From a virus, in IMG/VR virus record IMGVR_UViG_3300017917_001194, positions 22,397 through 86,396 of that record: a stretch of 64,000 nucleotides of DNA; one strand, 5' to 3'. Positions 13,233-21,719 of the stretch are shown piece by piece; position 1 is the stretch's first letter, and the number at the start of each line of letters is the position of its first letter. The position numbers were made by a program, and so were the translations under genes. The notes under the pieces are model-generated. The model saw only the letters and a program-made list of their open reading frames with translations, was not told the origin of the DNA and did no database searches.

Positions 13233-13321
13233 TGGCGGAGAGTATAGGATTCGAACCTATGCACCGTTATACACAGTGACGGATTAGCAATCCGTTGCAT
13301 TAACCACTCTGCCAACTCTCC
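13233..13321 (-). tRNA. tRNA-Ser(GCT)
   Basis: ACGGA-TT GCT AA-TCCGT, long V arm, CCA. Confidence 0.92.
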
Positions 13322-13326
13322 TAATT

Positions 13327-13402
13327 TGGTGCTGGAGAAAGGAATCGAACCCTCGACATCCGCATTACAAGTGCGGCGCTCTACCGTCTGAGCTACTCCA
13401 GC
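13327..13402 (-). tRNA. tRNA-Thr(TGT)
   Basis: CCGCA-CT TGT AA-TGCGG, CCA. Confidence 0.93.
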
Positions 13403-13403
13403 T

Positions 13404-13841
13404 TTAAAAACTTTTACCTTCGAGATATCTTTGCTTTCTAAAATGTCTTCCATTGCCTCTATTCTTGCCTTTATATGTTTCTGTTTGGCTATGACAATTT
13501 GGACAAATCATTGCTAAGTTATCTTCAGTTTGATTTTGGCTATTACCATCAACGTGTTCCACCTCAAGTGTCAGTGGCTTACCGTTCCATTCTATTGTGC
13601 CGCATATAGCACAACAGTGATTCTGTTTTTCTAACAGATATCTTTTAATATGAACGCTTACACCGTTTGGTCCTGCGCCTACTCTTAATCCTTCTTTCCA
13701 TTCCTTAACGTATCTTTTATATTGAGCAGTTTGTTGGCATTTTATCGAACAGTAAATATTTTTCTTACCAGGATGATAATTTGCTTCTGTACCACAATCA
13801 ATACACAAATATGTTTTAGGGTTAATTCTCTTTTTTGCCAT
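13404..13841 (-). CDS. HNH homing endonuclease
   Basis: CxxC, LEVEHVDGN..N...NL..ICPNCHSQT. Confidence 0.88.
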   Translation of the reverse strand: MAKKRINPKTYLCIDCGTEANYHPGKKNIYCSIKCQQTAQYKRYVKEWKEGLRVGAGPNGVSVHIKRYLLEKQNHCCAICGTIEWNGKPLTLEVEHVDGNSQNQTEDNLAMICPNCHSQTETYKGKNRGNGRHFRKQRYLEGKSF

Positions 13842-13884
13842 GGTATAGCACTCCTTACATTTATTTATGCTATACCAATGAATT

Positions 13885-14073
13885 TTACTCTGCGGCTTCT
13901 ACCACAGGAGGCGTGTAGCCTAATTTTTGAATACGGCGTTGAATTTTAGCCACAATTTTTTTCTTACTTGCACGTTCTAACAGTTTAACCAACTGTGGTC
14001 CATTGAGACTGACAATCTTTACTTCACCGGATTTGGTGTAACCTGGCTTCTTACGATTTAATTTCTTTGACAT
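13885..14073 (-). CDS. small basic hypothetical protein
   Basis: true start MSKKLNRKK at 14073 with AAGGAG RBS; the ORF-track extension is tRNA sequence. Confidence 0.65.
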   Translation of the reverse strand: MSKKLNRKKPGYTKSGEVKIVSLNGPQLVKLLERASKKKIVAKIQRRIQKLGYTPPVVEAAE

Positions 14074-14124
14074 TATTGACTCCTTTGTTCTACTTATTTT
14101 AGTTGTTGTTGCCGATAAAAGTTT

Positions 14125-14209
14125 TGGTACGAGGGGCGGGATTCGAACCCGCAAGGCTATTCGCCGCTGGATTTTAAATCCAGTGTGTAGACCGTTCCAC
14201 CACCCTCGC
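14125..14209 (-). tRNA. tRNA-Leu(TAA)
   Basis: CTGGA-TT TAA AA-TCCAG, long V arm, CCA. Confidence 0.9.
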
Positions 14210-14215
14210 AAAATC

Positions 14216-14494
14216 TTATATAGCGTCTGACAAGTTGGCCCAGGTAATATCCTTGGGATCAACGATGGCTACATTGTATTCGTACTTACGCAATAACTTC
14301 TGAGGTGGTACGGCACGACGTGGCATACCATTAACCTTGCCTGCTGTTGAATCAATTGGTTGTACCCAAACAAAAGTCTTGGAAAACTTAACCACACGTG
14401 CAATCACAATACGGTTATTAGCCACAGTGAATACGTGTTGCCCGATTTCTAATGGTTTGCCTAGTAGATCCTTAACAACATAATCGTTAATCAT
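14216..14494 (-). CDS. hypothetical protein
   Basis: start MINDYVVKDLLG with AGGAG RBS. Confidence 0.65.
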   Translation of the reverse strand: MINDYVVKDLLGKPLEIGQHVFTVANNRIVIARVVKFSKTFVWVQPIDSTAGKVNGMPRRAVPPQKLLRKYEYNVAIVDPKDITWANLSDAI

Positions 14495-14511
14495 ACTAAC
14501 TCCTATATAGT

Positions 14512-14585
14512 TGGAGCAGGGTAAGGGAATCGAACCCTCCGCTCTAGCTTGGAAGGCTAGGGTATTACCACTATACGAACCCTGC
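14512..14585 (-). tRNA. tRNA-Gly(TCC)
   Basis: CTAGC-CT TCC AA-GCTAG, CCA. Confidence 0.92.
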
Positions 14586-14594
14586 ATTTATAAT

Positions 14595-14623
14595 AATATA
14601 ACACAATCTACTATACTTGTCAA
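14595..14623 (-). promoter_or_regulatory. internal sigma70 promoter for the distal tRNAs
   Basis: TTGACA-N17-TATATT just upstream of tRNA-Gly(TCC). Confidence 0.6.
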
Positions 14624-14628
14624 TTAGG

Positions 14629-14713
14629 TGGTGCCCCAGGTGAGACTCGAACTCACACGCCTTTTGGGCAACGGCTTCTAAGACCGTCATGGCTACCATT
14701 ACATCACCGGGGC
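14629..14713 (-). tRNA. tRNA-Leu(TAG)
   Basis: ACGGT-CT TAG AA-GCCGT, long V arm, CCA. Confidence 0.9.
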
Positions 14714-14718
14714 ATATT

Positions 14719-14809
14719 TGGAGGAAGAGGTGGGATTCGAACCCACGGATCGCTCATCACGATCGCTAGTTTTCAAGACTAGAGCCATCAACCACTCGAC
14801 CACTCTTCC
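14719..14809 (-). tRNA. tRNA-Ser(TGA)
   Basis: CTAGT-CT TGA AA-ACTAG, long V arm, CCA. Confidence 0.92.
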
Positions 14810-14810
14810 A

Positions 14811-14885
14811 TGGTAGTAGTGGTAAGATTCGAACTTACACCGGACCGCGTATGAAGCGGGCGCACTACCGTTATGCTACACTACC
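14811..14885 (-). tRNA. tRNA-Met(CAT), elongator-type
   Basis: CCGC-TT CAT AC-GCGG, CCA. Confidence 0.82.
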
Positions 14886-14897
14886 ATAAATATTACT

Positions 14898-15404
14898 ATG
14901 AGAATAAAAGAGATTTTAACTGAAGCACATCACAGCATCATACTAACCATGCCAATTGGACCATGGAAAGTGCAAATCGATTCTCATGCGTATGCTACAT
15001 TACCTGCTCGTAATATTCCGTTAGAAAACTTTACCAATATGATAAGTTATATGTGTTATCTACCGGATGTTCTTCCGACAATTCCTGTTGGGCGCGGTGC
15101 ATATTTTCAAGACACAAATACTGCTATTTCAATATATGTAACACGTGTAGCTGACAATGTCGTTAGAGTAGAAACAGTGTTGGACCGCACAATGAAGCCA
15201 AAGCAACCTTTATTCCGCAGACCAGTGCCTGCACCGGACATGAAAAATCTTAAGCCTGTTGACTACAGCGCAATAAAGGCTGATGTACAAGCCCGCGGTA
15301 GAGATGCAGTTAGTCAAGACTTGGAAAAAACTCTACAACCTATCACACCCGTTAACCGAGCTGAGCGAAGAAAATTCGCCAAAGTAATGCGTCGTTTAAA
15401 ATAA
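14898..15404 (+). CDS. late-expressed hypothetical protein (MRIKEILTE N-terminus)
   Basis: ATAAATA late-promoter motif 5 nt before the ATG; antisense within the tRNA array. Confidence 0.7.
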   Translation: MRIKEILTEAHHSIILTMPIGPWKVQIDSHAYATLPARNIPLENFTNMISYMCYLPDVLPTIPVGRGAYFQDTNTAISIYVTRVADNVVRVETVLDRTMKPKQPLFRRPVPAPDMKNLKPVDYSAIKADVQARGRDAVSQDLEKTLQPITPVNRAERRKFAKVMRRLK

Positions 15405-15440
15405 TCTACCATATAAAAATACTCTTGTGTAAAAATGTTT

Positions 15441-15620
15441 TTATATGGTGGGACTGCTCGGATTCGAACCGAGACTCTTACCGGTTAAAAGCCGGATGTT
15501 TTGGCCAGTTAAACTACAATCCCTCATTTTCTCTTTACGTCGTAGAGCTTTGTTGCTCTTGCGGTGCGAGCCCGCCTTCCGTTTATTTGCTAGTACAGCA
15601 AATGGATTTCTTGGTTTCAT
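15441..15620 (-). CDS. small basic ORF reading through tRNA-Lys (candidate ArfA-like rescue factor)
   Basis: AAAGGAG RBS; MKPRNPFAVLANKRKAGSHRKSNKALRRKEKM then the whole tRNA-Lys in frame to TAA at 15441. Confidence 0.6.
   Translation of the reverse strand: MKPRNPFAVLANKRKAGSHRKSNKALRRKEKMRDCSLTGQNIRLLTGKSLGSNPSSPTI
15446..15523 (-). tRNA. tRNA-Lys(TTT)
   Basis: CCGG-CT TTT AA-CCGG, CCA. Confidence 0.9.
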
Positions 15621-15642
15621 TTTATTCTCCTTTGTTAAAAAT

Positions 15643-15717
15643 TGGCCCGCCGTGCAGGAATCGAACCCACATTCTAGAGGTAGAAGCTCTATGTCCTATC
15701 CATTGAACGAACGGCAG
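15643..15717 (-). tRNA. tRNA-Arg(TCT)
   Basis: TAGAG-CT TCT AC-CTCTA, CCA. Confidence 0.9.
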
Positions 15718-15722
15718 TTATT

Positions 15723-15817
15723 TGGTAGCAGATCTAGGATTTGAACCTAGCCGTTCCGGCCCATCTAGCCAGTCTCCAGAGTTTATAAGTCTCCGCCGCA
15801 CTCCAGTGCTATCTGCC
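15723..15817 (-). tRNA. atypical tRNA with TAT anticodon, tiny D-loop and long variable arm
   Basis: 7-bp acceptor GGCAGAT/ATCTGCT, D arm GCAC-TGGA-GTGC, loop CTTATAA, T arm CTAGG-TTCAAAT-CCTAG, ACCA. Confidence 0.75.
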
Positions 15818-15818
15818 T

Positions 15819-15894
15819 TGGGGTGCTGTATGGGACTCGAACCCATATTAACGGAATCACAATCCGTGGTGTTAACCTTTACACTAACTGCACC
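15819..15894 (-). tRNA. tRNA-His(GTG)
   Basis: ACGGA-TT GTG AT-TCCGT, G-1:C73, CCA. Confidence 0.9.
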
Positions 15895-15895
15895 A

Positions 15896-16369
15896 TTAAC
15901 CGTTGGCTATATTAAGGCTCTTGTACCTATCTGCCGCATAGCTAGCCGCGAATGCTCGGGGCTTGACCATTGGAATAACATTACAAGTACCACGGATATA
16001 ACCTATGGCTTGACCGCATACGTTAGAACTAGCGTAGTGTTCATCTGGGTTTAAGTCTAGGTGAACTTCAACATGGCGATTTTCTAGTACGTCTGCTAAT
16101 TTTAAATACAATTCACTTGCTTTATACACTTCGGTCATCAAGCGAGTGTTAGGACGATCCACGCGATCATAATCACGTTCACGTGAGACTTCGCCAAATA
16201 TCTTACAGCCATTGTTGCCGTTGATGTGTACAACTATAACCGCTGTATAGTCCGCATACCACGCATGATTTACTTGTAATCGTTCACTATCCACACCGAT
16301 ATAAATTTTAGTATCTGGTGTTTGTGCTTCAATGAACGCTTTTAATGCTGGTATGTCAAACTTTTTCAT
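15896..16369 (-). CDS. RNase H-like protein (YkuK/DUF458 type)
   Basis: IYIGVDSE, RLMTEV, EVHLDLN, AASYAAD. Confidence 0.75.
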   Translation of the reverse strand: MKKFDIPALKAFIEAQTPDTKIYIGVDSERLQVNHAWYADYTAVIVVHINGNNGCKIFGEVSRERDYDRVDRPNTRLMTEVYKASELYLKLADVLENRHVEVHLDLNPDEHYASSNVCGQAIGYIRGTCNVIPMVKPRAFAASYAADRYKSLNIANG

Positions 16370-16383
16370 TTAATCCTCACTGG

Positions 16384-16773
16384 TTAATTTGTTGGTAAAC
16401 CTCTTGCCGCTCTGCCTTTACCCCTGTTTTTTCCTTTATAGGTGTCAGTAGTAGCATGACAATTAGGACATAGCAATCTTAAATTTTCTAACTTATTATT
16501 ACCGGCATTGCCATCTATGTGATCTAAATCTAAAGGTATTTTGTTACCTAACCAAGTTTTACCCTTGCACATAGAACATTGATGTCCTTGTATTTTTTTC
16601 ACAAACTCTCTAATAGCCGGGCGTGACCAAACAGAATAGTCACCTTCTTCTAATTTTTTCAGATTATTTTGCTGTCGACCTTCAAAGTAACATTTACGAC
16701 AACAATACATATTAGAGTTACTCAATCGTTTAGGCATAAACGATGTGTTACAAGTTTTACAAACATAGTCCAT
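16384..16773 (-). CDS. HNH homing endonuclease
   Basis: LDLDHIDGNAGNN..ENLRLLCPNCH; paralog of 13404..13841. Confidence 0.88.
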   Translation of the reverse strand: MDYVCKTCNTSFMPKRLSNSNMYCCRKCYFEGRQQNNLKKLEEGDYSVWSRPAIREFVKKIQGHQCSMCKGKTWLGNKIPLDLDHIDGNAGNNKLENLRLLCPNCHATTDTYKGKNRGKGRAARGLPTN

Positions 16774-16816
16774 AACATTATTCTCCTATATCGTATTTAG
16801 TATAATGTCATTATTT

Positions 16817-16890
16817 TGGTGCTTCGTGAAAGAATCGAACTTCCGTGTCCCACTTGTAAGGAGGGCATTCTGCCATTAAATTAACGAAGC
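16817..16890 (-). tRNA. tRNA-Val(TAC)
   Basis: CCCTC-CT TAC AA-GTGGG, CCA. Confidence 0.87.
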
Positions 16891-16895
16891 ATGCG

Positions 16896-16972
16896 TGGCC
16901 GGTCTTGCAGGATTCGAACCCACCACCCCCTGGTTCGTAGCCAGGTACTCTATCCAAATGAGCTAAAGACCG
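16896..16972 (-). tRNA. tRNA-Arg(ACG)
   Basis: CCTGG-CT ACG AA-CCAGG, CCA. Confidence 0.92.
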
Positions 16973-16974
16973 AA

Positions 16975-17066
16975 GTATAACCCAGGGCTACCAGAGTAAA
17001 AATCACACGTCTAACAGCATGTCATTTACTGTAGATTACTGTAGGTAGTGGGCTGGGCCGTTATAA
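16975..17066 (-). ncRNA. candidate structured RNA between tRNA-Ile and tRNA-Arg
   Basis: nested complementary segments TATAAC/GTTATA, CCCAG/CTGGG, CTACC/GGTAG, AGTAAA/TTTACT, ACATG/CGTGT. Confidence 0.45.
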
Positions 17067-17067
17067 C

Positions 17068-17141
17068 TGGTAGCCAGAACAAGAATTGAACTTGTAATAA
17101 TCGCTTATCAAGCGACCGTTATACCATTTAACTATCCGGCT
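17068..17141 (-). tRNA. tRNA-Ile(GAT)
   Basis: GTCGC-TT GAT AA-GCGAT, CCA. Confidence 0.9.
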
Positions 17142-17142
17142 G

Positions 17143-17220
17143 TGGTCTCGGGTGAGGGATTCGAACTCTCGTTATTCCTGGTCCCAAACCAGGTGCCATA
17201 CCAGACTAGGCGAACCCGAG
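17143..17220 (-). tRNA. tRNA-Pro(TGG)
   Basis: CCTGG-TT TGG GA-CCAGG, CCA. Confidence 0.92.
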
Positions 17221-17221
17221 T

Positions 17222-17992
17222 TTAAAGTTTTGAATATTTCTCATTCCACACCCTGATTCTTTCTAATAATTCCTCATAGGTGATTGAATTTTTTTTATGT
17301 TTTGAACTATTTTTAGTATGTATAAGTAGTTCACAATTTGCCGGGTGCCTTATATGTTCCACTGGTAAGTTATTATCAAATCCATATCTACAACTAATCA
17401 TATGATCCCTACTTACTCCTCCGGTATTGTTACCTCTATTTGAGGCTTGATACCACCCGTGTGTTTTTATTAAATTAAAATTAAACTCATCTGGGTAATC
17501 TTTAAGATTAAATCTAAATTGACAATCGGCACGATAATTTTGCCATTCTGTTCTCTTTGCCCTTAACGGAATGTTTTTATAATCTATAGCACACTTTTTA
17601 CAACAGAACGTTTTAATTTTACTAAAAGTTTCAAATTGAGAATTACAGTGCTTACATTGTTTACTAATTAATTGTTTGCTCTTGGCCGGCCCTGTTTTAA
17701 ATTTTGAATAATCTTTAATAGCATTATTATAAATGGCCGCACAAGAGTTAGAACAAAATTTATTATGTCTTCTATTATACTCAAGTTTAGTACCACATTG
17801 AGCACATAGATTGGGATTTTTTATATATTTGTCAATAACATCTTCTTGGTGTCGTTTAGCTAAGATATCATATTTGCCGTTATATCCAGAGGAATATTTT
17901 GATAGATTAAGATGCGTTCTATCAACATGAGTAAATATTCCTTTTGCTGATTTAACTTCTTTACAGTATATACAACTACACAGTGTCGGCAT
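17222..17992 (-). CDS. putative homing endonuclease (zinc fingers + DH...HPAN.E HNH-like C-terminus)
   Basis: repeated CxxC; SRDHMIS...GF.NN.P...IRHPANCELL...NSSK. Confidence 0.7.
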   Translation of the reverse strand: MPTLCSCIYCKEVKSAKGIFTHVDRTHLNLSKYSSGYNGKYDILAKRHQEDVIDKYIKNPNLCAQCGTKLEYNRRHNKFCSNSCAAIYNNAIKDYSKFKTGPAKSKQLISKQCKHCNSQFETFSKIKTFCCKKCAIDYKNIPLRAKRTEWQNYRADCQFRFNLKDYPDEFNFNLIKTHGWYQASNRGNNTGGVSRDHMISCRYGFDNNLPVEHIRHPANCELLIHTKNSSKHKKNSITYEELLERIRVWNEKYSKL

Positions 17993-18066
17993 TTTTCATC
18001 TCCAAAAGTATTTTATACTATTATTTATCATTGGTGGATAATCTAATAGTTAAATTAAAACACTTT

Positions 18067-18139
18067 TGGAGATGGTCAGGATCGAACTGACTACCTTCTG
18101 CTTGCAAAGCAGATGCTCTCCCAAATGAGCTACACCCCC
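18067..18139 (-). tRNA. tRNA-Ala(TGC), CCA not encoded
   Basis: TCTGC-TT TGC AA-GCAGA, G3:U70. Confidence 0.9.
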
Positions 18140-18143
18140 GTAA

Positions 18144-18219
18144 TGGAGCAGGATATCGGGTTCGAACCGATGACCTCGACGTTGGCAACGTGGCGCTCTA
18201 CCAGCTGAGCTAATCCTGC
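18144..18219 (-). tRNA. tRNA-Gly(GCC)
   Basis: ACG-TT GCC AA-CGT, CCA. Confidence 0.9.
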
Positions 18220-18225
18220 ATTGTT

Positions 18226-18301
18226 TGGCAGGGGATGAGTGGATCGAACACTCTCAATGGCGGGATCAAAACCCGCTGCCTTCCCATTTGGCGAATCCCC
18301 A
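18226..18301 (-). tRNA. tRNA-Gln(TTG)
   Basis: GCGGG-TT TTG AT-CCCGC, CCA. Confidence 0.9.
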
Positions 18302-18359
18302 CTTGTACTACTTGGCGGTTAAAAATAGTTCGAACCGCAAACTTGAGATAAATATTAGT

Positions 18360-19178
18360 ATGACAAAAAAATATTTTACTCAATCACAATGTAAACATTG
18401 TGGTAAAATTTACACTAAACAGAGAGATTCAAACAGATCTTTCTGCGACAATCAATGTCGTGTAAACTTCCGAATTGCTAACAAAAAAGTTATTATTAGG
18501 CCTTCTAAAACTTGCCCTAAATGTCACACTATTCACAATAAAATAGGAACATTCTGCTCTCGTAGTTGTGCCAATGGACACATTGTTACAGATAAGCATA
18601 AATCTAAATTAATGGACACTATTAATACTAAACTCACTATTAAGAACCAATTCGGTGAACACCCACGAAAATCTGCATTGCCAAAAAATATTGGCAAGAT
18701 TAGGCAATTTAATTATGTTGGCCCATATACTAAAATATACTTGTGCACCTGCAAATATTCTGGAAAGAAGTGGTATTCGCCTACAGTTAAAACCGTTCAT
18801 CCTGACTTGGGACGGACACGGAAAGAATACAGTTACTCTTGTCGTTTTCAGTTTGGAATTTCATCATTTCCAGATTGGTTTACTGATGCGTCTGAATTAA
18901 TAAACAAATACGGCTGGTACTCAACTCCCGGGTCGCGCAAAGGAATTAAAAACACAAACGGAATCTCGAGAGATCATTTATATTCGATCACCGACGGATG
19001 GACAAACAATGTTCCTCCCGAACTTATCCGGCATCCGGCGAATTGTGAGCTAGTCCCTCATCAGCAAAACCAATCTAAATATTATACTTCAAAAATAACG
19101 CTTGATGAATTATATCAACGAATACGCCAATTTAATTTGTTATATGGGCTACCCTGCACCGACTTGAACGGCGACTAA
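18360..19178 (+). CDS. putative homing endonuclease, paralog of 17222..17992
   Basis: start MTKKYF after the ATAAATA motif; SRDHLYS...IRHPANCELVPH..NQSK. Confidence 0.7.
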   Translation: MTKKYFTQSQCKHCGKIYTKQRDSNRSFCDNQCRVNFRIANKKVIIRPSKTCPKCHTIHNKIGTFCSRSCANGHIVTDKHKSKLMDTINTKLTIKNQFGEHPRKSALPKNIGKIRQFNYVGPYTKIYLCTCKYSGKKWYSPTVKTVHPDLGRTRKEYSYSCRFQFGISSFPDWFTDASELINKYGWYSTPGSRKGIKNTNGISRDHLYSITDGWTNNVPPELIRHPANCELVPHQQNQSKYYTSKITLDELYQRIRQFNLLYGLPCTDLNGD

Positions 19179-19219
19179 AAATTTTGGAGATTTCTGTGCT
19201 ACCTTTACACTACAGGGCA
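19145..19219 (-). tRNA. tRNA-Trp(CCA)
   Basis: GAAAT-CT CCA AA-ATTTT; 3' end reads GCCCA and overlaps the antisense endonuclease tail. Confidence 0.8.
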
Positions 19220-19233
19220 ATAACTATTTAAAT

Positions 19234-19318
19234 TGGTGGAGTATCCAGGGATCGAACCGGGCGTGCCATAAGGCGGGGGATTTACAGTCCCCTGCATCAC
19301 CGTTGATGCTTCTACTCC
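19234..19318 (-). tRNA. tRNA-Tyr(GTA)
   Basis: GGGGA-CT GTA AA-TCCCC, V arm, CCA. Confidence 0.9.
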
Positions 19319-19326
19319 AAATTGTA

Positions 19327-19403
19327 TGGCATCCTGTAGGGGATTCGAACCCCTGAATGTCACCGTGAAAGGGTGATGACTTAGGCCGCTTGTCGAACAG
19401 GAT
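19327..19403 (-). tRNA. tRNA-Glu(TTC)
   Basis: TCACC-CT TTC AC-GGTGA, CCA. Confidence 0.92.
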
Positions 19404-19409
19404 AAAACC

Positions 19410-19485
19410 TGGTTGCGGGAGGAGGAATTGAACCTACCATCTGAGAGCTTATGAGACTCCCGTGCGACCACTACACTTTCCCGCG
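19410..19485 (-). tRNA. tRNA-Met(CAT), initiator-like
   Basis: C1:A72 mismatch, CT CAT AA loop, CCA. Confidence 0.82.
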
Positions 19486-19492
19486 ATTGTTC

Positions 19493-19576
19493 TGGCTCCG
19501 AAGGTAGGCTTCGAACCTACAGTGCTTTCGCGGCAGATTAACAGTCTGCTGAGTTTACCAGTTCCTCTACTTCGGA
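19493..19576 (-). tRNA. tRNA-Asn(GTT) with extended variable arm
   Basis: GCAGA-CT GTT AA-TCTGC; V arm GC-GAAA-GC; CCA. Confidence 0.88.
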
Positions 19577-19583
19577 ATTGTCT

Positions 19584-19658
19584 TGGCGGTCTCAAGGGGT
19601 AACGATCCCCTTCTTTATGCGTGACAGGCATATGTGCGTCCATGAACACTTTGAGACC
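19584..19658 (-). tRNA. tRNA-Asp(GTC)
   Basis: TATGC-CT GTC AC-GCATA; non-canonical T loop ATCGTTA; CCA. Confidence 0.87.
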
Positions 19659-19739
19659 AAAATCTGGTGAGTAGTTTTGTTACTCCGGACTACTACTAAC
19701 CGGGTTTCACTAATAACTGGCTGAGCCAGAATTCGTGTT

Positions 19740-19817
19740 TGGAGCAACGGGTGTGATTCGAACACACGGCTTTAGGGATTTGCAGTCCCTTGCATTGGGC
19801 CACTCTGCCACCGTTGC
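19740..19817 (-). tRNA. tRNA-Cys(GCA)
   Basis: AGGGA-CT GCA AA-TCCCT, CCA. Confidence 0.92.
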
Positions 19818-19821
19818 ATAT

Positions 19822-19958
19822 CATACTGAAGCACACTCGAGAGAATGTGCTTTAGTATGCTGTGATTTTTTGTTCCACACAAGGAACTCCATCCTACAGT
19901 CCGCCCATTTGTACTGTTTTAAGTGTAGTACAGGATCTCGTTTCCTATAACCACTCTA
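19822..19958 (-). ncRNA. candidate structured RNA(s) at the head of the tRNA array
   Basis: 14-bp hairpin 19822..19859; TGTACT/AGTACA, ATCC/GGAT, GTTCC/GGAAC, GTGGTT/AATCAC stems; non-coding. Confidence 0.45.
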
Positions 19959-20007
19959 AATCGTTCTTGGAATGATTGTTCCAACCATTCTGCAAGCAGT
20001 TAGATAT

Positions 20008-20205
20008 CTATCTTGACCACTTGGAGTAAAGACCGCTCCGTGTTGCTATGGGGCAATCTTTTCTGGCTTCGAGTTCGGCTTGTGCCCTATCGATCTTGTT
20101 TCGGAACAATTTTGCTTTTTGTTCGTCAGTTAGAACATAGTGAGCCGCTTCGAACGCCTTTTGAACGATCGTATTATGCAATTCCGTATTGTCTATAGTC
20201 TGCAT
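20008..20205 (-). CDS. hypothetical protein, first cistron after the attenuator
   Basis: AGAAGGAG RBS, 65 aa. Confidence 0.65.
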   Translation of the reverse strand: MQTIDNTELHNTIVQKAFEAAHYVLTDEQKAKLFRNKIDRAQAELEARKDCPIATRSGLYSKWSR

Positions 20206-20224
20206 CGCGTTTCTCCTTCTTTCT

Positions 20225-20260
20225 AAAATAAAAACCCCAGGGTGTTTAGTCCTGGGGCTC
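20225..20260 (-). terminator. intrinsic terminator of the tRNA-operon attenuator
   Basis: GAGCCCCAGG-ACTAAACAC-CCTGGGG followed by TTTTTATTTT. Confidence 0.85.
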
Positions 20261-20298
20261 TTGAATAAAGTTTAAAATACAATTCTATTCAGAACCCC
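20254..20298 (-). promoter_or_regulatory. antiterminator hairpin overlapping the leader-ORF 3' end
   Basis: GGGGTTCTGAATAGA pairs with TTTATTCAAGAGCCCC and shares GAGCCCC with the terminator. Confidence 0.75.
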
Positions 20299-20401
20299 TG
20301 ATACCGTACACAATATTACCCTCTGTTGGTAGGCAGGCTGACGACCAACGTAATGCGGGCATCTGCTTACTATCAAAGGTTATGTGTCTTAAAGTATTCA
20401 T
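20285..20401 (-). CDS. attenuator leader peptide containing all 20 amino acids (38 aa)
   Basis: MNTLRHITFDSKQMPALRWSSACLPTEGNIVYGIRGSE*; ATG 10 nt after the -10 box. Confidence 0.7.
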   Translation of the reverse strand: MNTLRHITFDSKQMPALRWSSACLPTEGNIVYGIRGSE

Positions 20402-20411
20402 AATAGTATGT

Positions 20412-20440
20412 ATTATAGTTTAGATATTTATATCCGTCAA
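20412..20440 (-). promoter_or_regulatory. sigma70 promoter of the tRNA operon with nested TATAAATA late motif
   Basis: TTGACG-GATATAAATATCTAAAC(17)-TATAAT. Confidence 0.8.
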
Positions 20441-20817
20441 CCTCTTTTGGTAAAATTATTTATCCCTTGTAAATCACTGGTTTCGCCACGTGCTACACGA
20501 TATGCGTCCACTGCTCGCATACGAGCTAACATTAGTCTCAAACGCATTTCATCTGTAATTACTACATCATCTTCTGTGGGTGCAATATCTACTCGTGCTT
20601 TTAATACTGTGTCTCTACGTACAATCATATACTGTTGAGCCACAGTTAAACTGTCATCATCTTCATCGTCGGCAAAATACTTGTGTATGGGCAGGTGACG
20701 TGTGGTCAGCTTGATTACTTGCTTGACTTCTGGCTCTGGTGCGGCCACTGGATCTGAAGCATAAGCAACGGCAAATATTACCGCTAATGCAGCGGTTAAA
20801 ATATATCTTGTTCTCAT
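20437..20817 (-). CDS. putative exported protein
   Basis: signal-peptide-like N-terminus ending AVAYA. Confidence 0.65.
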   Translation of the reverse strand: MRTRYILTAALAVIFAVAYASDPVAAPEPEVKQVIKLTTRHLPIHKYFADDEDDDSLTVAQQYMIVRRDTVLKARVDIAPTEDDVVITDEMRLRLMLARMRAVDAYRVARGETSDLQGINNFTKRG

Positions 20818-21111
20818 TTAGTTTGGTACCAATACAGTTCTATAGCAGTTACAACTAGCATCTACTATGGTTTCATAGTGGTAGCCATATGGTGCTACGG
20901 GTTGAGCAGGTGGATAATACACCGGCTGTGGTTGAACATAAACCGTTCTAGGTTGTGCGAGGGCATAACCCAATACGCCGCCTATCACTATCGGGGCGAT
21001 CCAATTCTGGCCTCCGTGGTGATGTGAATGGTTCCAATGATTCGGATTTGCCTGGCTTGAGTTCGCTATTAACATCATACTTGCAAAAAGCAGTGTGATA
21101 ACCTTTTTCAT
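20818..21111 (-). CDS. putative exported His/Pro-rich protein
   Basis: signal peptide, HHHGG, hydrophobic segment, Pro/Tyr-rich tail. Confidence 0.7.
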   Translation of the reverse strand: MKKVITLLFASMMLIANSSQANPNHWNHSHHHGGQNWIAPIVIGGVLGYALAQPRTVYVQPQPVYYPPAQPVAPYGYHYETIVDASCNCYRTVLVPN

Positions 21112-21175: not shown

Positions 21176-21199
21176 AAAAGGCCCAATTAAGGGCCTTTT
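21176..21199. terminator. bidirectional intrinsic terminator after tmRNA
   Basis: AAAAGGCCC-AATTAA-GGGCCTTTT. Confidence 0.8.
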
Positions 21200-21510
21200 G
21201 GTTGTTTCTGTTACGAGGTAAGTCCTACCCTAAGCAGTGATTAAACTGCTAAAGTTTGGCGTTGTGCTGTACGAGCAGAGAATTTAACGTTCTTACCTGA
21301 AACAGTTACTTCGCCTTTAGATGCGTTTGCATTTACATTTATTTGCTTGGATTACGTCCATCGCCTCTCGTGTTGTCTGCTACAATACTAATTCGCCCGT
21401 CGAGTCTAAATCAGGCCCCTCATAAACATTCTACTTAAAATGCTTATGGTGGACCTGGGGAGGCACTGCCCCTCCCGTCCGAACAACCTTTCTCTTCACT
21501 TCATACAACA
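21200..21510 (-). ncRNA. ssrA: circularly permuted two-piece tmRNA
   Basis: acceptor piece ends CAGGTCC-A-CCA at 21447; hairpin spacer; coding piece starts GGGCCTGATTTAGACTCGACGGG at 21418 (G3:U70); tag ORF 21241..21330; outer ends approximate. Confidence 0.85.
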
Positions 21511-21515
21511 ATTCT

Positions 21516-21719
21516 TTACTCTCTACCCCAATCAATATGTGTCCAAATTCTATCATAAATGTAGTACGAACAAGTCCATACTATGTTAATAATGATAGCA
21601 GGTAATATTGCTTGCGTAGTACTTTGTCCAGTGATCAACAACATTACATAGGTGCTTAGTATAACCCAGCATCTGTAGATTAAAGTTTTTACTAATGTTC
21701 GCTTTTTCGTATCTTTCAT
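21516..21719 (-). CDS. small membrane protein (DUF2061-like)
   Basis: RTLVKTLIYR...YYIYDRIW..I.WG. Confidence 0.7.
   Translation of the reverse strand: MKDTKKRTLVKTLIYRCWVILSTYVMLLITGQSTTQAILPAIIINIVWTCSYYIYDRIWTHIDWGRE

Follow-up and report, generated by a model that had tools for sequence, protein, structure and literature searches.

A putative leader-peptide attenuator with an amino-acid-complete leader upstream of a phage tRNA gene array

The leader unit ahead of the tRNA array

The subject of this study is a short leader unit that lies ahead of a tRNA gene array in an 86 kb IMG/VR virus contig (IMGVR_UViG_3300017917_001194) of an uncultured giant phage. The whole stretch of DNA analysed, referred to here as the window, is 64,000 nt long and corresponds to bases 22,397-86,396 of this contig, the CheckV completeness of which is 27%. 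The unit consists of a promoter, a small open reading frame (ORF) of 38 codons, an intrinsic terminator, and an antiterminator helix formed by the end of the ORF, and is considered a candidate ribosome-mediated attenuator. A preliminary description, made from the nucleotide sequence alone, had listed these elements, and every one of them was found in the window, all on the minus strand.

The promoter is of the sigma-70 type, with a -35 hexamer at 20435..20440 and, after a 17 nt spacer, a consensus -10 hexamer at 20412..20417, so that it agrees with the consensus at 11 of 12 positions. The region is not enriched in promoter-like sites as such (43, compared with 41.6 in shuffled sequences), and the promoter counts as evidence only because it is conserved: relatives have equivalent promoters. 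The leader ORF itself (20285..20401) comprises 38 codons followed by a TAG stop. Its ATG lies 10 nt past the -10 hexamer, giving a 5' untranslated region (UTR) of about 3-4 nt, and a Shine-Dalgarno sequence was looked for ahead of the ATG and none was found. Direct translation agrees with the earlier claim of a leader that holds all 20 amino acids, is complete by codon 32 and uses 33 distinct codons; the twentieth type to appear is Tyr, at codon 32, and nine types occur only once. The chance of finding all 20 types in a random 38-mer is 0.007 with independent draws and 0.004 with windows of real genes. Such a composition in one 38-mer is suggestive when taken alone, and becomes decisive because of the relatives described below. 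At 40% identity the window leader falls in a cluster of five leaders of 38-39 amino acids (aa), each with 20 types.

The antiterminator has its 5' arm at 20284..20298, which takes in the final codons of the leader and its stop, and its 3' arm at 20254..20269; the four bases at the end of this 3' arm (20257..20254) also begin the terminator 5' arm. The two arms (20298..20284 with 20269..20254) form 15 bp with one bulge at -19.9 kcal/mol, which bears out the pairing of about 15 bp that had been proposed to exclude the terminator. In a duplex test against shuffled sequences this pairing has z = -4.8, with 0 of 200 shuffles equally good. The intrinsic terminator (20225..20257) has a G+C-rich stem of 7 bp (20257..20251/20241..20235), a 9 nt loop and a T-run at 20234..20225; its energy is -12.7 to -15.5 kcal/mol, and it is also present in the minimum-energy fold of the full-length transcript. 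A simple terminator scan missed it because that scan allows loops of up to 8 nt. In an Rfam scan of positions 19800-20900 (E <= 10) no family reached its cut-off, the only matches being His_leader (RF00514; 17 bits against a cut-off of 49), a match that essentially covers the terminator, and L10_leader (15.6 against 44). The T-box model gave no match in the same region at the same threshold.

Downstream, also on the minus strand, is the tRNA array (13233..19817), in which ARAGORN finds 23 genes with 22 distinct anticodons and ORFs interspersed among them. The array had been described as one of 25 tRNA genes following the terminator on the strand of the leader. The strand and the downstream position are correct, while the count is 23 downstream plus one upstream, and the array does not follow directly, being separated from the terminator by a 65-aa ORF and about 190 nt of structured sequence.

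Related units in other viral contigs

A DNA search with an 831 nt query gave a sole match in a related 96 kb contig, and this match spans the unit from promoter to terminator exactly (69% identity, E = 1.2e-14). DNA and protein searches of a cultured-phage collection with the window element and two other family members returned nothing, and the two flanking small proteins have no relatives in that collection or among the viral contigs. Relatives were collected with two independent anchors. The first, the terminator pattern, gave 22 loci with 18 distinct cores. Since this pattern forces the loop to look conserved, a second anchor was added, namely a motif pair in the structured stretch past the small ORF that follows the terminator; at least 120 viral contig stretches carry it, of which 80 loci were kept. 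This DNA motif was used because the alignment of the small ORF is too weakly conserved to seed a locus search. A functional, conserved terminator loop was considered and rejected, as the first pattern had required the loop and the loci of the second anchor show many other loops. The loci of both anchors, together with locus L238 and the window, make up 104 sources, mostly uncultured giant-phage contigs.

The routine that called leaders started from a terminator, looked 12-50 nt upstream of it for a stop codon and took the ORF ending there, so the leader frame is open by construction. This gave 91 leaders of 20-60 codons, 81 of them distinct. Three loci were left out of the count, L098 and L121 being truncated at the locus end and L137 having been a wrong pick, and in four loci (L125, L189, L150 and L154) the longest ORF was taken as the leader. 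Ten sources have no leader call; six of these have less than 310 nt of upstream sequence, and L144, although uncalled by the routine, has a leader according to both the promoter rule and covariance model R1. A G+C-rich hairpin and T-run are found 25-42 nt past the stop codon in all called leaders.

The starts of the leaders are of two kinds. In 47 distinct leaders the ATG lies 3-10 nt (mostly 6-7 nt) past a near-consensus -10 hexamer, with a tandem ATG in 21 of them, and their transcripts would be leaderless or nearly leaderless mRNAs. Within this class, in 14 clusters (40% identity), the ATG next to the promoter shares its frame over 20-53 codons with the stop that lies in the switch. In the remaining leaders the 5' UTR is longer, and a hairpin and a purine-rich stretch precede the ATG. 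This second architecture, seen in L125, L130, L135, L138 and L142, consists of a promoter, a 5' hairpin, an untranslated stretch of 60-80 nt and then the leader ORF.

Amino acid diversity of the leaders

Among the 74 distinct leaders of at least 30 aa, the mean number of amino acid types is 19.08, compared with 16.34 and 16.59 when the same stretches are read in the other two frames, and all 20 types are present in 43 of the leaders but in none of the 74 translations of either other frame. The other frames of the leader stretches are also interrupted by stop codons, with means of 3.2 and 3.8. To count independent cases, representatives were chosen by single-linkage clustering, again with only those of at least 30 aa counted, and were compared with a background composition taken from 753 long ORFs of the same loci. 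This background is rather flat, which makes the test conservative. At 40% identity, nine of 19 representatives hold all 20 types where 0.59 are expected (P = 8e-11), and at 50% identity the figures are 14 of 30 and 0.96. When only leaders of the leaderless type are used, the starts of which are fixed by the promoter, seven of 13 representatives are complete compared with 0.20 expected (P = 5e-11).

The other complete leaders are at most 49% identical to that of the window (median 24%), and when 50-70% of the residues of the window leader are replaced at random, all 20 types survive in 1-3% of trials. The low identity, together with this rare survival under random substitution, indicates that completeness is under selection and was not inherited by chance. 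A class of short leaders (20-22 codons) has 9-11 types.

Conserved pairing between the leader end and the terminator

A covariance model built from 80 switch regions recovered 83 matches. The covariance alignment was poor, with subfamilies in different helix registers, and the pairing was therefore evaluated by duplex tests on each sequence, using shuffles and arm swaps. The segments tested ran from 33 nt before to 12 nt past the stop codon on the 5' side, and on the 3' side took in 14 nt ahead of the terminator along with 7 nt at the start of its 5' arm; an earlier choice of 18 nt for the upstream segment was too short for the largest cluster. With these segments, the pairing of the leader end is better than that of shuffled 5' segments in 78 of the 81 distinct leaders at P <= 0.05, and in 70 at P <= 0.01, with a mean of -19.6 kcal/mol and z = -4.0. 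At least 4 nt of the terminator 5' arm are within the pairing in 81 of 81. If the 5' segment is replaced by one from another cluster, it pairs equally well in a median of 2.6% of trials, so the two antiterminator arms change together.

The position of this helix relative to the leader is also conserved. In 79 of the 81 leaders the antiterminator 5' arm overlaps the footprint of a ribosome with its A site at the stop codon. Folding of the naked transcript to a point 7 nt into the terminator sequesters the terminator arm in 75 of the 81, and readthrough would therefore be the default without a ribosome at the leader end. The comparison of related arrays proposed in the preliminary description has thus shown that they keep the short ORF, its stop at the antiterminator, the competing terminator and the excess of amino acid diversity.

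Leader composition and the downstream tRNA genes

Where at least 1,500 nt of downstream sequence is available, 60 of 62 leaders are followed by tRNA genes on the same strand, at a median distance of 444 nt from the terminator to the first tRNA. Of the 22 distinct anticodons in the window array, 21 are matched by a cognate codon in the leader (null 15.3, P = 0.0004), and in five relatives the anticodons covered range from 15 of 16 to 23 of 25, with P < 0.02 in four.

Among the distinct leaders, 25 are missing one or more amino acids and are followed by tRNA genes for at least four amino acid types; in these, 219 of the 232 downstream tRNA types are represented in the leader; the null expectation is 189.5, and the maximum in 20,000 simulations was 208. 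Short leaders are the informative class in this respect. Two genomes carry two leaders each, one for each of two tRNA clusters and made up mostly of the amino acids of that cluster. In G011, leader 1 (21 codons) is directly ahead of a cluster of Gly, Glu, Leu, Asp, Ala, Val, Thr, Pro, Met and Asn tRNA genes, and about 6.5 kb further is leader 2 (37 codons), followed by the small ORF, the structured stretch and a cluster of Met, Tyr, Trp, Phe, Cys, Gln, Arg, Lys, His, Ile and Ser. With Met set aside, 18 of 20 residues of leader 1 and 28 of 34 of leader 2 belong to the leader's own cluster (Fisher, 2.8e-7). The relatives of leader 1 in G014 and G016 show the same restriction in composition. The second genome, G018, is a 357 kb contig of 100% completeness, with a pair of leaders and tRNA clusters that look unrelated to those of G011: a 30-codon leader is ahead of an Asn-Ser-Asp-Ala-Glu-Gly-Thr-Leu-Pro-Gly-Met-Ser cluster, and a 22-codon leader ahead of an Ile-Trp-Cys-Lys-Gln-Met-Lys-Arg-His-Phe cluster. 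Here the residue counts, made by eye, are 23:4 and 6:13 (Fisher, 4.4e-4).

Proposed mechanism and alternative explanations

The anatomy of the unit, its conservation, the co-varying pairing, the excess of amino acid diversity and the match between leader and tRNA set are all established by these comparisons, and point to a ribosome-mediated (leader-peptide) transcription attenuator that probably senses aminoacyl-tRNA supply and gates the phage tRNA genes. The leader would be translated, the terminator would be a working one, and the response would have the following direction and cause. Host RNA polymerase would start at the strong sigma-70 promoter, with the transcript beginning nearly at the leader AUG, and the first ribosome would load at the 5' end and trail the polymerase. 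A ribosome that keeps pace would reach the end of the leader and cover the 5' arm of the antiterminator, allowing the terminator to form and transcription to stop. Were the ribosome delayed at an earlier codon, the more stable antiterminator would form first, and transcription would proceed into the small ORF, the structured RNA and the tRNA genes. Ample aminoacyl-tRNA, the phage's own tRNAs included, would lower expression and so provide negative feedback. Given a leader with all 20 amino acids and codons for 21 of 22 anticodons, a shortage of almost any aminoacyl-tRNA should raise expression. Because the naked transcript defaults to the antiterminator in most leaders, such a switch would be a race between ribosome and polymerase and not the strict 1:2 / 2:3 / 3:4 scheme of the trp type.

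The reach of the sensor can be estimated from a footprint model of the window leader. A ribosome at codons 1-30 leaves the antiterminator free, codon 31 is borderline, and from codon 32 through the stop the antiterminator is masked. Val and Tyr occur only at codons 31-32, and so 18 amino acid types, not 20, are sensor-competent in this model. The attenuation logic of the preliminary description is supported by the comparative data; its proposal that stalling at almost any codon would open the switch holds for codons 1-30 of the modelled leader and fails from codon 32 onward.

A number of observations weigh against this interpretation. With regard to translation, the lack of a Shine-Dalgarno sequence combined with what is probably a 5' UTR of 3-4 nt, as distinct from a 5'-terminal AUG, makes the efficiency with which the window leader is translated uncertain. 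The start codons of the 34 distinct leaders that are not of the leaderless type were set by rule and are perhaps a few codons off. Complete leaders are not universal, 31 of the 74 leaders of at least 30 aa holding only 14-19 types, and a ribosome stalled in the window leader at the only Val and Tyr codons would, according to the footprint model, favour termination. As for the helices, a global covariance model of the leaders fits the window helix poorly, with 53% of cells paired and two of five measures beating shuffles, and an upstream anti-antiterminator pairing onto the G-run of the antiterminator 5' arm amounts to 5 bp in the subfamily of the window, is weak, and is mismatched in the window itself. 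The match to the tRNA genes is also imperfect. Most of the single-locus coverage tests are not significant on their own, and G003 (93% complete) has a 17-type leader with only six tRNA genes behind it. The window leader includes Phe and Tyr codons, and neither a Phe nor a canonical Tyr tRNA gene was found in the 86 kb contig fragment. It has no codon for Gly(tcc), the sole anticodon of the array without a cognate leader codon, and directly ahead of this tRNA-Gly(tcc) gene is a consensus-like promoter (14623..14595, minus strand; 11 of 12 positions, extended -10). This internal promoter could drive the distal tRNA genes whatever the state of the attenuator; its position next to the one anticodon that the leader does not sample may be a coincidence.

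The best surviving alternative, considered unlikely, is that the switch reports overall translation capacity, as determined by ribosomes, host shut-off or inhibitors, and that the amino acid diversity of the leader has no role in sensing. The default formation of the antiterminator in naked transcripts agrees with this, since any failure or delay of translation would give readthrough, and the uORF (upstream ORF) attenuator of whiB7 is described in PMC10274678 as answering many kinds of translation stress. The retention of a 17-type leader ahead of the six tRNA genes of G003 is likewise in its favour. A sensor of this kind needs no set composition, yet complete leaders are far above chance across diverged lineages, and in both G011 and G018 the contrast in composition between the paired leaders parallels that between their tRNA clusters.

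A more improbable explanation is that the unit specifies an untranslated small RNA of about 170 nt, or a plain insulator terminator, and that the ORF is incidental. The unit has its own promoter and terminator, the Shine-Dalgarno sequence is lacking, and the transcript is more structured than shuffled sequences (z = -2.98), all of which would suit such an RNA; no Rfam family matches it, however, and an incidental ORF would hardly run without interruption from an ATG close to the promoter to a stop that lies within the switch at a median identity of 24%, with 3-4 stops in the other frames, or confine all-20 diversity to the leader frame (43 versus 0 and 0 of 74). Least probable of all is a micropeptide gene, with a functional 38-aa product and hairpins that are merely its terminator: equivalent ORFs are annotated as hypothetical proteins in cultured relatives and some residue motifs recur among the leaders, but what the leaders conserve is their composition and where the stop lies in the switch, the peptide sequence itself changing freely, and a plain terminator needs no competing helix over the stop codon.

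Attenuation by aminoacyl-tRNA supply remains the preferred reading for the unit in the window. For a wider form of it the chances are about even: that each giant-phage tRNA block is under codon-resolved, closed-loop control by a leader that evolution keeps stocked with the codons of just the tRNAs behind it, from all 20 amino acids for a complete block to a fitting subset for a split array, and that tRNAs are made on demand, including during attack by host defences that cut or deplete tRNA. If this were true, the switch would be an infection-time sensor of tRNA-targeting immunity. A link to host anticodon nucleases in particular is speculation.

Comparison with known regulatory systems

The attenuators of enterobacterial amino acid operons include those of trp, his, leu and phe, and the multivalent ones of thr and ilvGMEDA. 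The unit described here resembles the trp/his type in having a short leader ORF between a promoter and an intrinsic terminator, mutually exclusive helices between which the position of the leading ribosome chooses, and leader codons that name the amino acids sensed. It differs in being phage-borne and in its targets, which are tRNA genes and not biosynthetic enzymes. Moreover, the operon leaders have runs of one to three amino acids whereas the present leaders sample up to all 20; the start is of the leaderless type; the naked RNA defaults to readthrough, not termination; and there is no shared sequence or Rfam membership. The T-box riboswitch is similar in that a terminator/antiterminator switch reports tRNA charging. 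T-boxes bind one uncharged tRNA directly, need no translation, and control genes for synthetases or amino acid metabolism.

Two further systems are near to the present one in function and respond to impaired translation. According to PMC10274678, the mycobacterial whiB7 (wblC) gene is controlled by a uORF attenuator in which stalling leads to antitermination; it is activated by loss of many genes for amino acid biosynthesis, tRNAs or tRNA synthetases, and the uORF coding sequence determines which amino acid starvation is sensed. This uORF is alanine-enriched and not spread over 20 amino acids, its target is a transcription factor for drug resistance, and it is bacterial and non-homologous to the phage units. 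In Anabaena PCC 7120 a long tRNA array, the trn operon, with about 26 accessory tRNA genes, is reported in PMC8421152 and PMC10272220 to be silent, to be induced by impaired translation, and to be controlled by a repressor, TrcR, that acts on direct repeats in the promoter. It is thus like the window unit in being an accessory tRNA array that is switched on under translation trouble, and unlike it in relying, in those accounts, on a promoter repressor and in residing on a cellular megaplasmid. In the main text of PMC8421152 the terms leader, attenuat- and terminator have 0 occurrences.

A full-text search of the literature, with supplements and most subscription journals outside its scope, found no attenuator ahead of tRNA genes and no leader sampling all amino acids, in agreement with the earlier remark that no codon-sampler attenuator of this kind had been described. 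To our knowledge, hardly anything has been established about the regulation of the large tRNA sets of phages. If the interpretation favoured here is correct, attenuation of the trp type has been adapted to sense the aminoacyl-tRNA pool as a whole and has been wired to tRNA supply. It would be the first known attenuator to control tRNA genes, and its leader the first to be selected for completeness instead of for runs of one amino acid. It would also explain, in a way that can be tested, when phages make their tRNAs and for what reason, whether upon codon-usage mismatch, host shut-off or attack by tRNA-cleaving defences. The leader switch would be a compact natural part able to report decoding speed for any codon, and would explain dozens of tiny 'hypothetical proteins' and unannotated gaps ahead of giant-phage tRNA arrays.

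Analogous units in cultured phages

The family-B DNA polymerase of the contig shares 50% identity with its counterpart in Sinorhizobium phage Phosso and 47% with the one in Agrobacterium phage Atu_ph07, both of which are cultured giant phages, and many uncultured IMG/VR relatives have a polymerase 80-91% identical to that of the contig. Covariance model R1 has no match in Phosso or Atu_ph07. Both nevertheless have an analogous leader/antiterminator/terminator unit, of different sequence, upstream of their main tRNA array. In Phosso (PV764938.1, around 419,650-419,980; L242, 419,000-420,450) the leader is an annotated hypothetical protein of 54 aa with 19 amino acid types; the terminator is found 33 nt after it, and codons 42-45 form a duplex with the terminator 5' arm that has an energy of -24.1 kcal/mol (z = -5.8) and was equalled by 0 of 500 shuffles. 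The unit in Atu_ph07 (NC_042013.1, around 339,300-339,050 on the minus strand; L243, 338,780-340,200) has a Phosso-like arrangement, in which the leader is gp469, a hypothetical protein of 42 aa with 18 types, and the pairing has an energy of -20.3 kcal/mol (z = -4.7). Since these two phages are in culture, the hypothesis can be tested at the bench.

Flanking genes and RNAs

The first gene past the terminator in the window is the 65-aa ORF (20008..20205, minus strand), which has a strong ribosome-binding site and a predicted helical product. Searches of Pfam, PHROGs and PDB with this protein found no relative. In the first set, with its 18 distinct leader cores, 12 cores are followed by a related ORF (17 of 23 sources), as is leader 2 of G011. 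Small helical ORFs of this family (50-65 aa), with five invariant alignment columns, are the first gene past the terminator in most of the loci with long leaders.

Between the small ORF and the first tRNA gene of the window lies the conserved, structured RNA-like stretch (19823..19955, minus strand), part of the structured sequence of about 190 nt mentioned above, which has no Rfam match (it is covered by the scan of 19800-20900). In an alignment of six sequences, both partners have changed with pairing retained at 12 of the 19 predicted pairs. A structured element of this sort is also present in L116 (12318-12460), L101, L103, L106 and L096. One subfamily (L094, L099, L104, L112 and L098) has more conserved, hairpin-rich non-coding stretches 100-260 nt past the small ORF and before the first tRNA gene.

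Within the array is a non-canonical, tRNA-like gene of 95 nt with a long variable arm (about 15723-15817, minus strand), which ARAGORN reports as Tyr(ata) at a lowered threshold only; the counterpart genes of relatives, 91-95 nt in length, are called Ile(tat).

Upstream of the leader is a 126-aa ORF (20817..20437), the stop codon of which falls within the -35 hexamer of the leader promoter, so that readthrough from upstream genes into the leader is possible. Just upstream of the promoter region the phage encodes a permuted (two-piece) transfer-messenger RNA (tmRNA) of the alphaproteobacterial type (21197-21563, minus strand), which scores 98.4 bits with RF04321 and 53.7 bits with RF01849. The type of this tmRNA hints at an alphaproteobacterial host.

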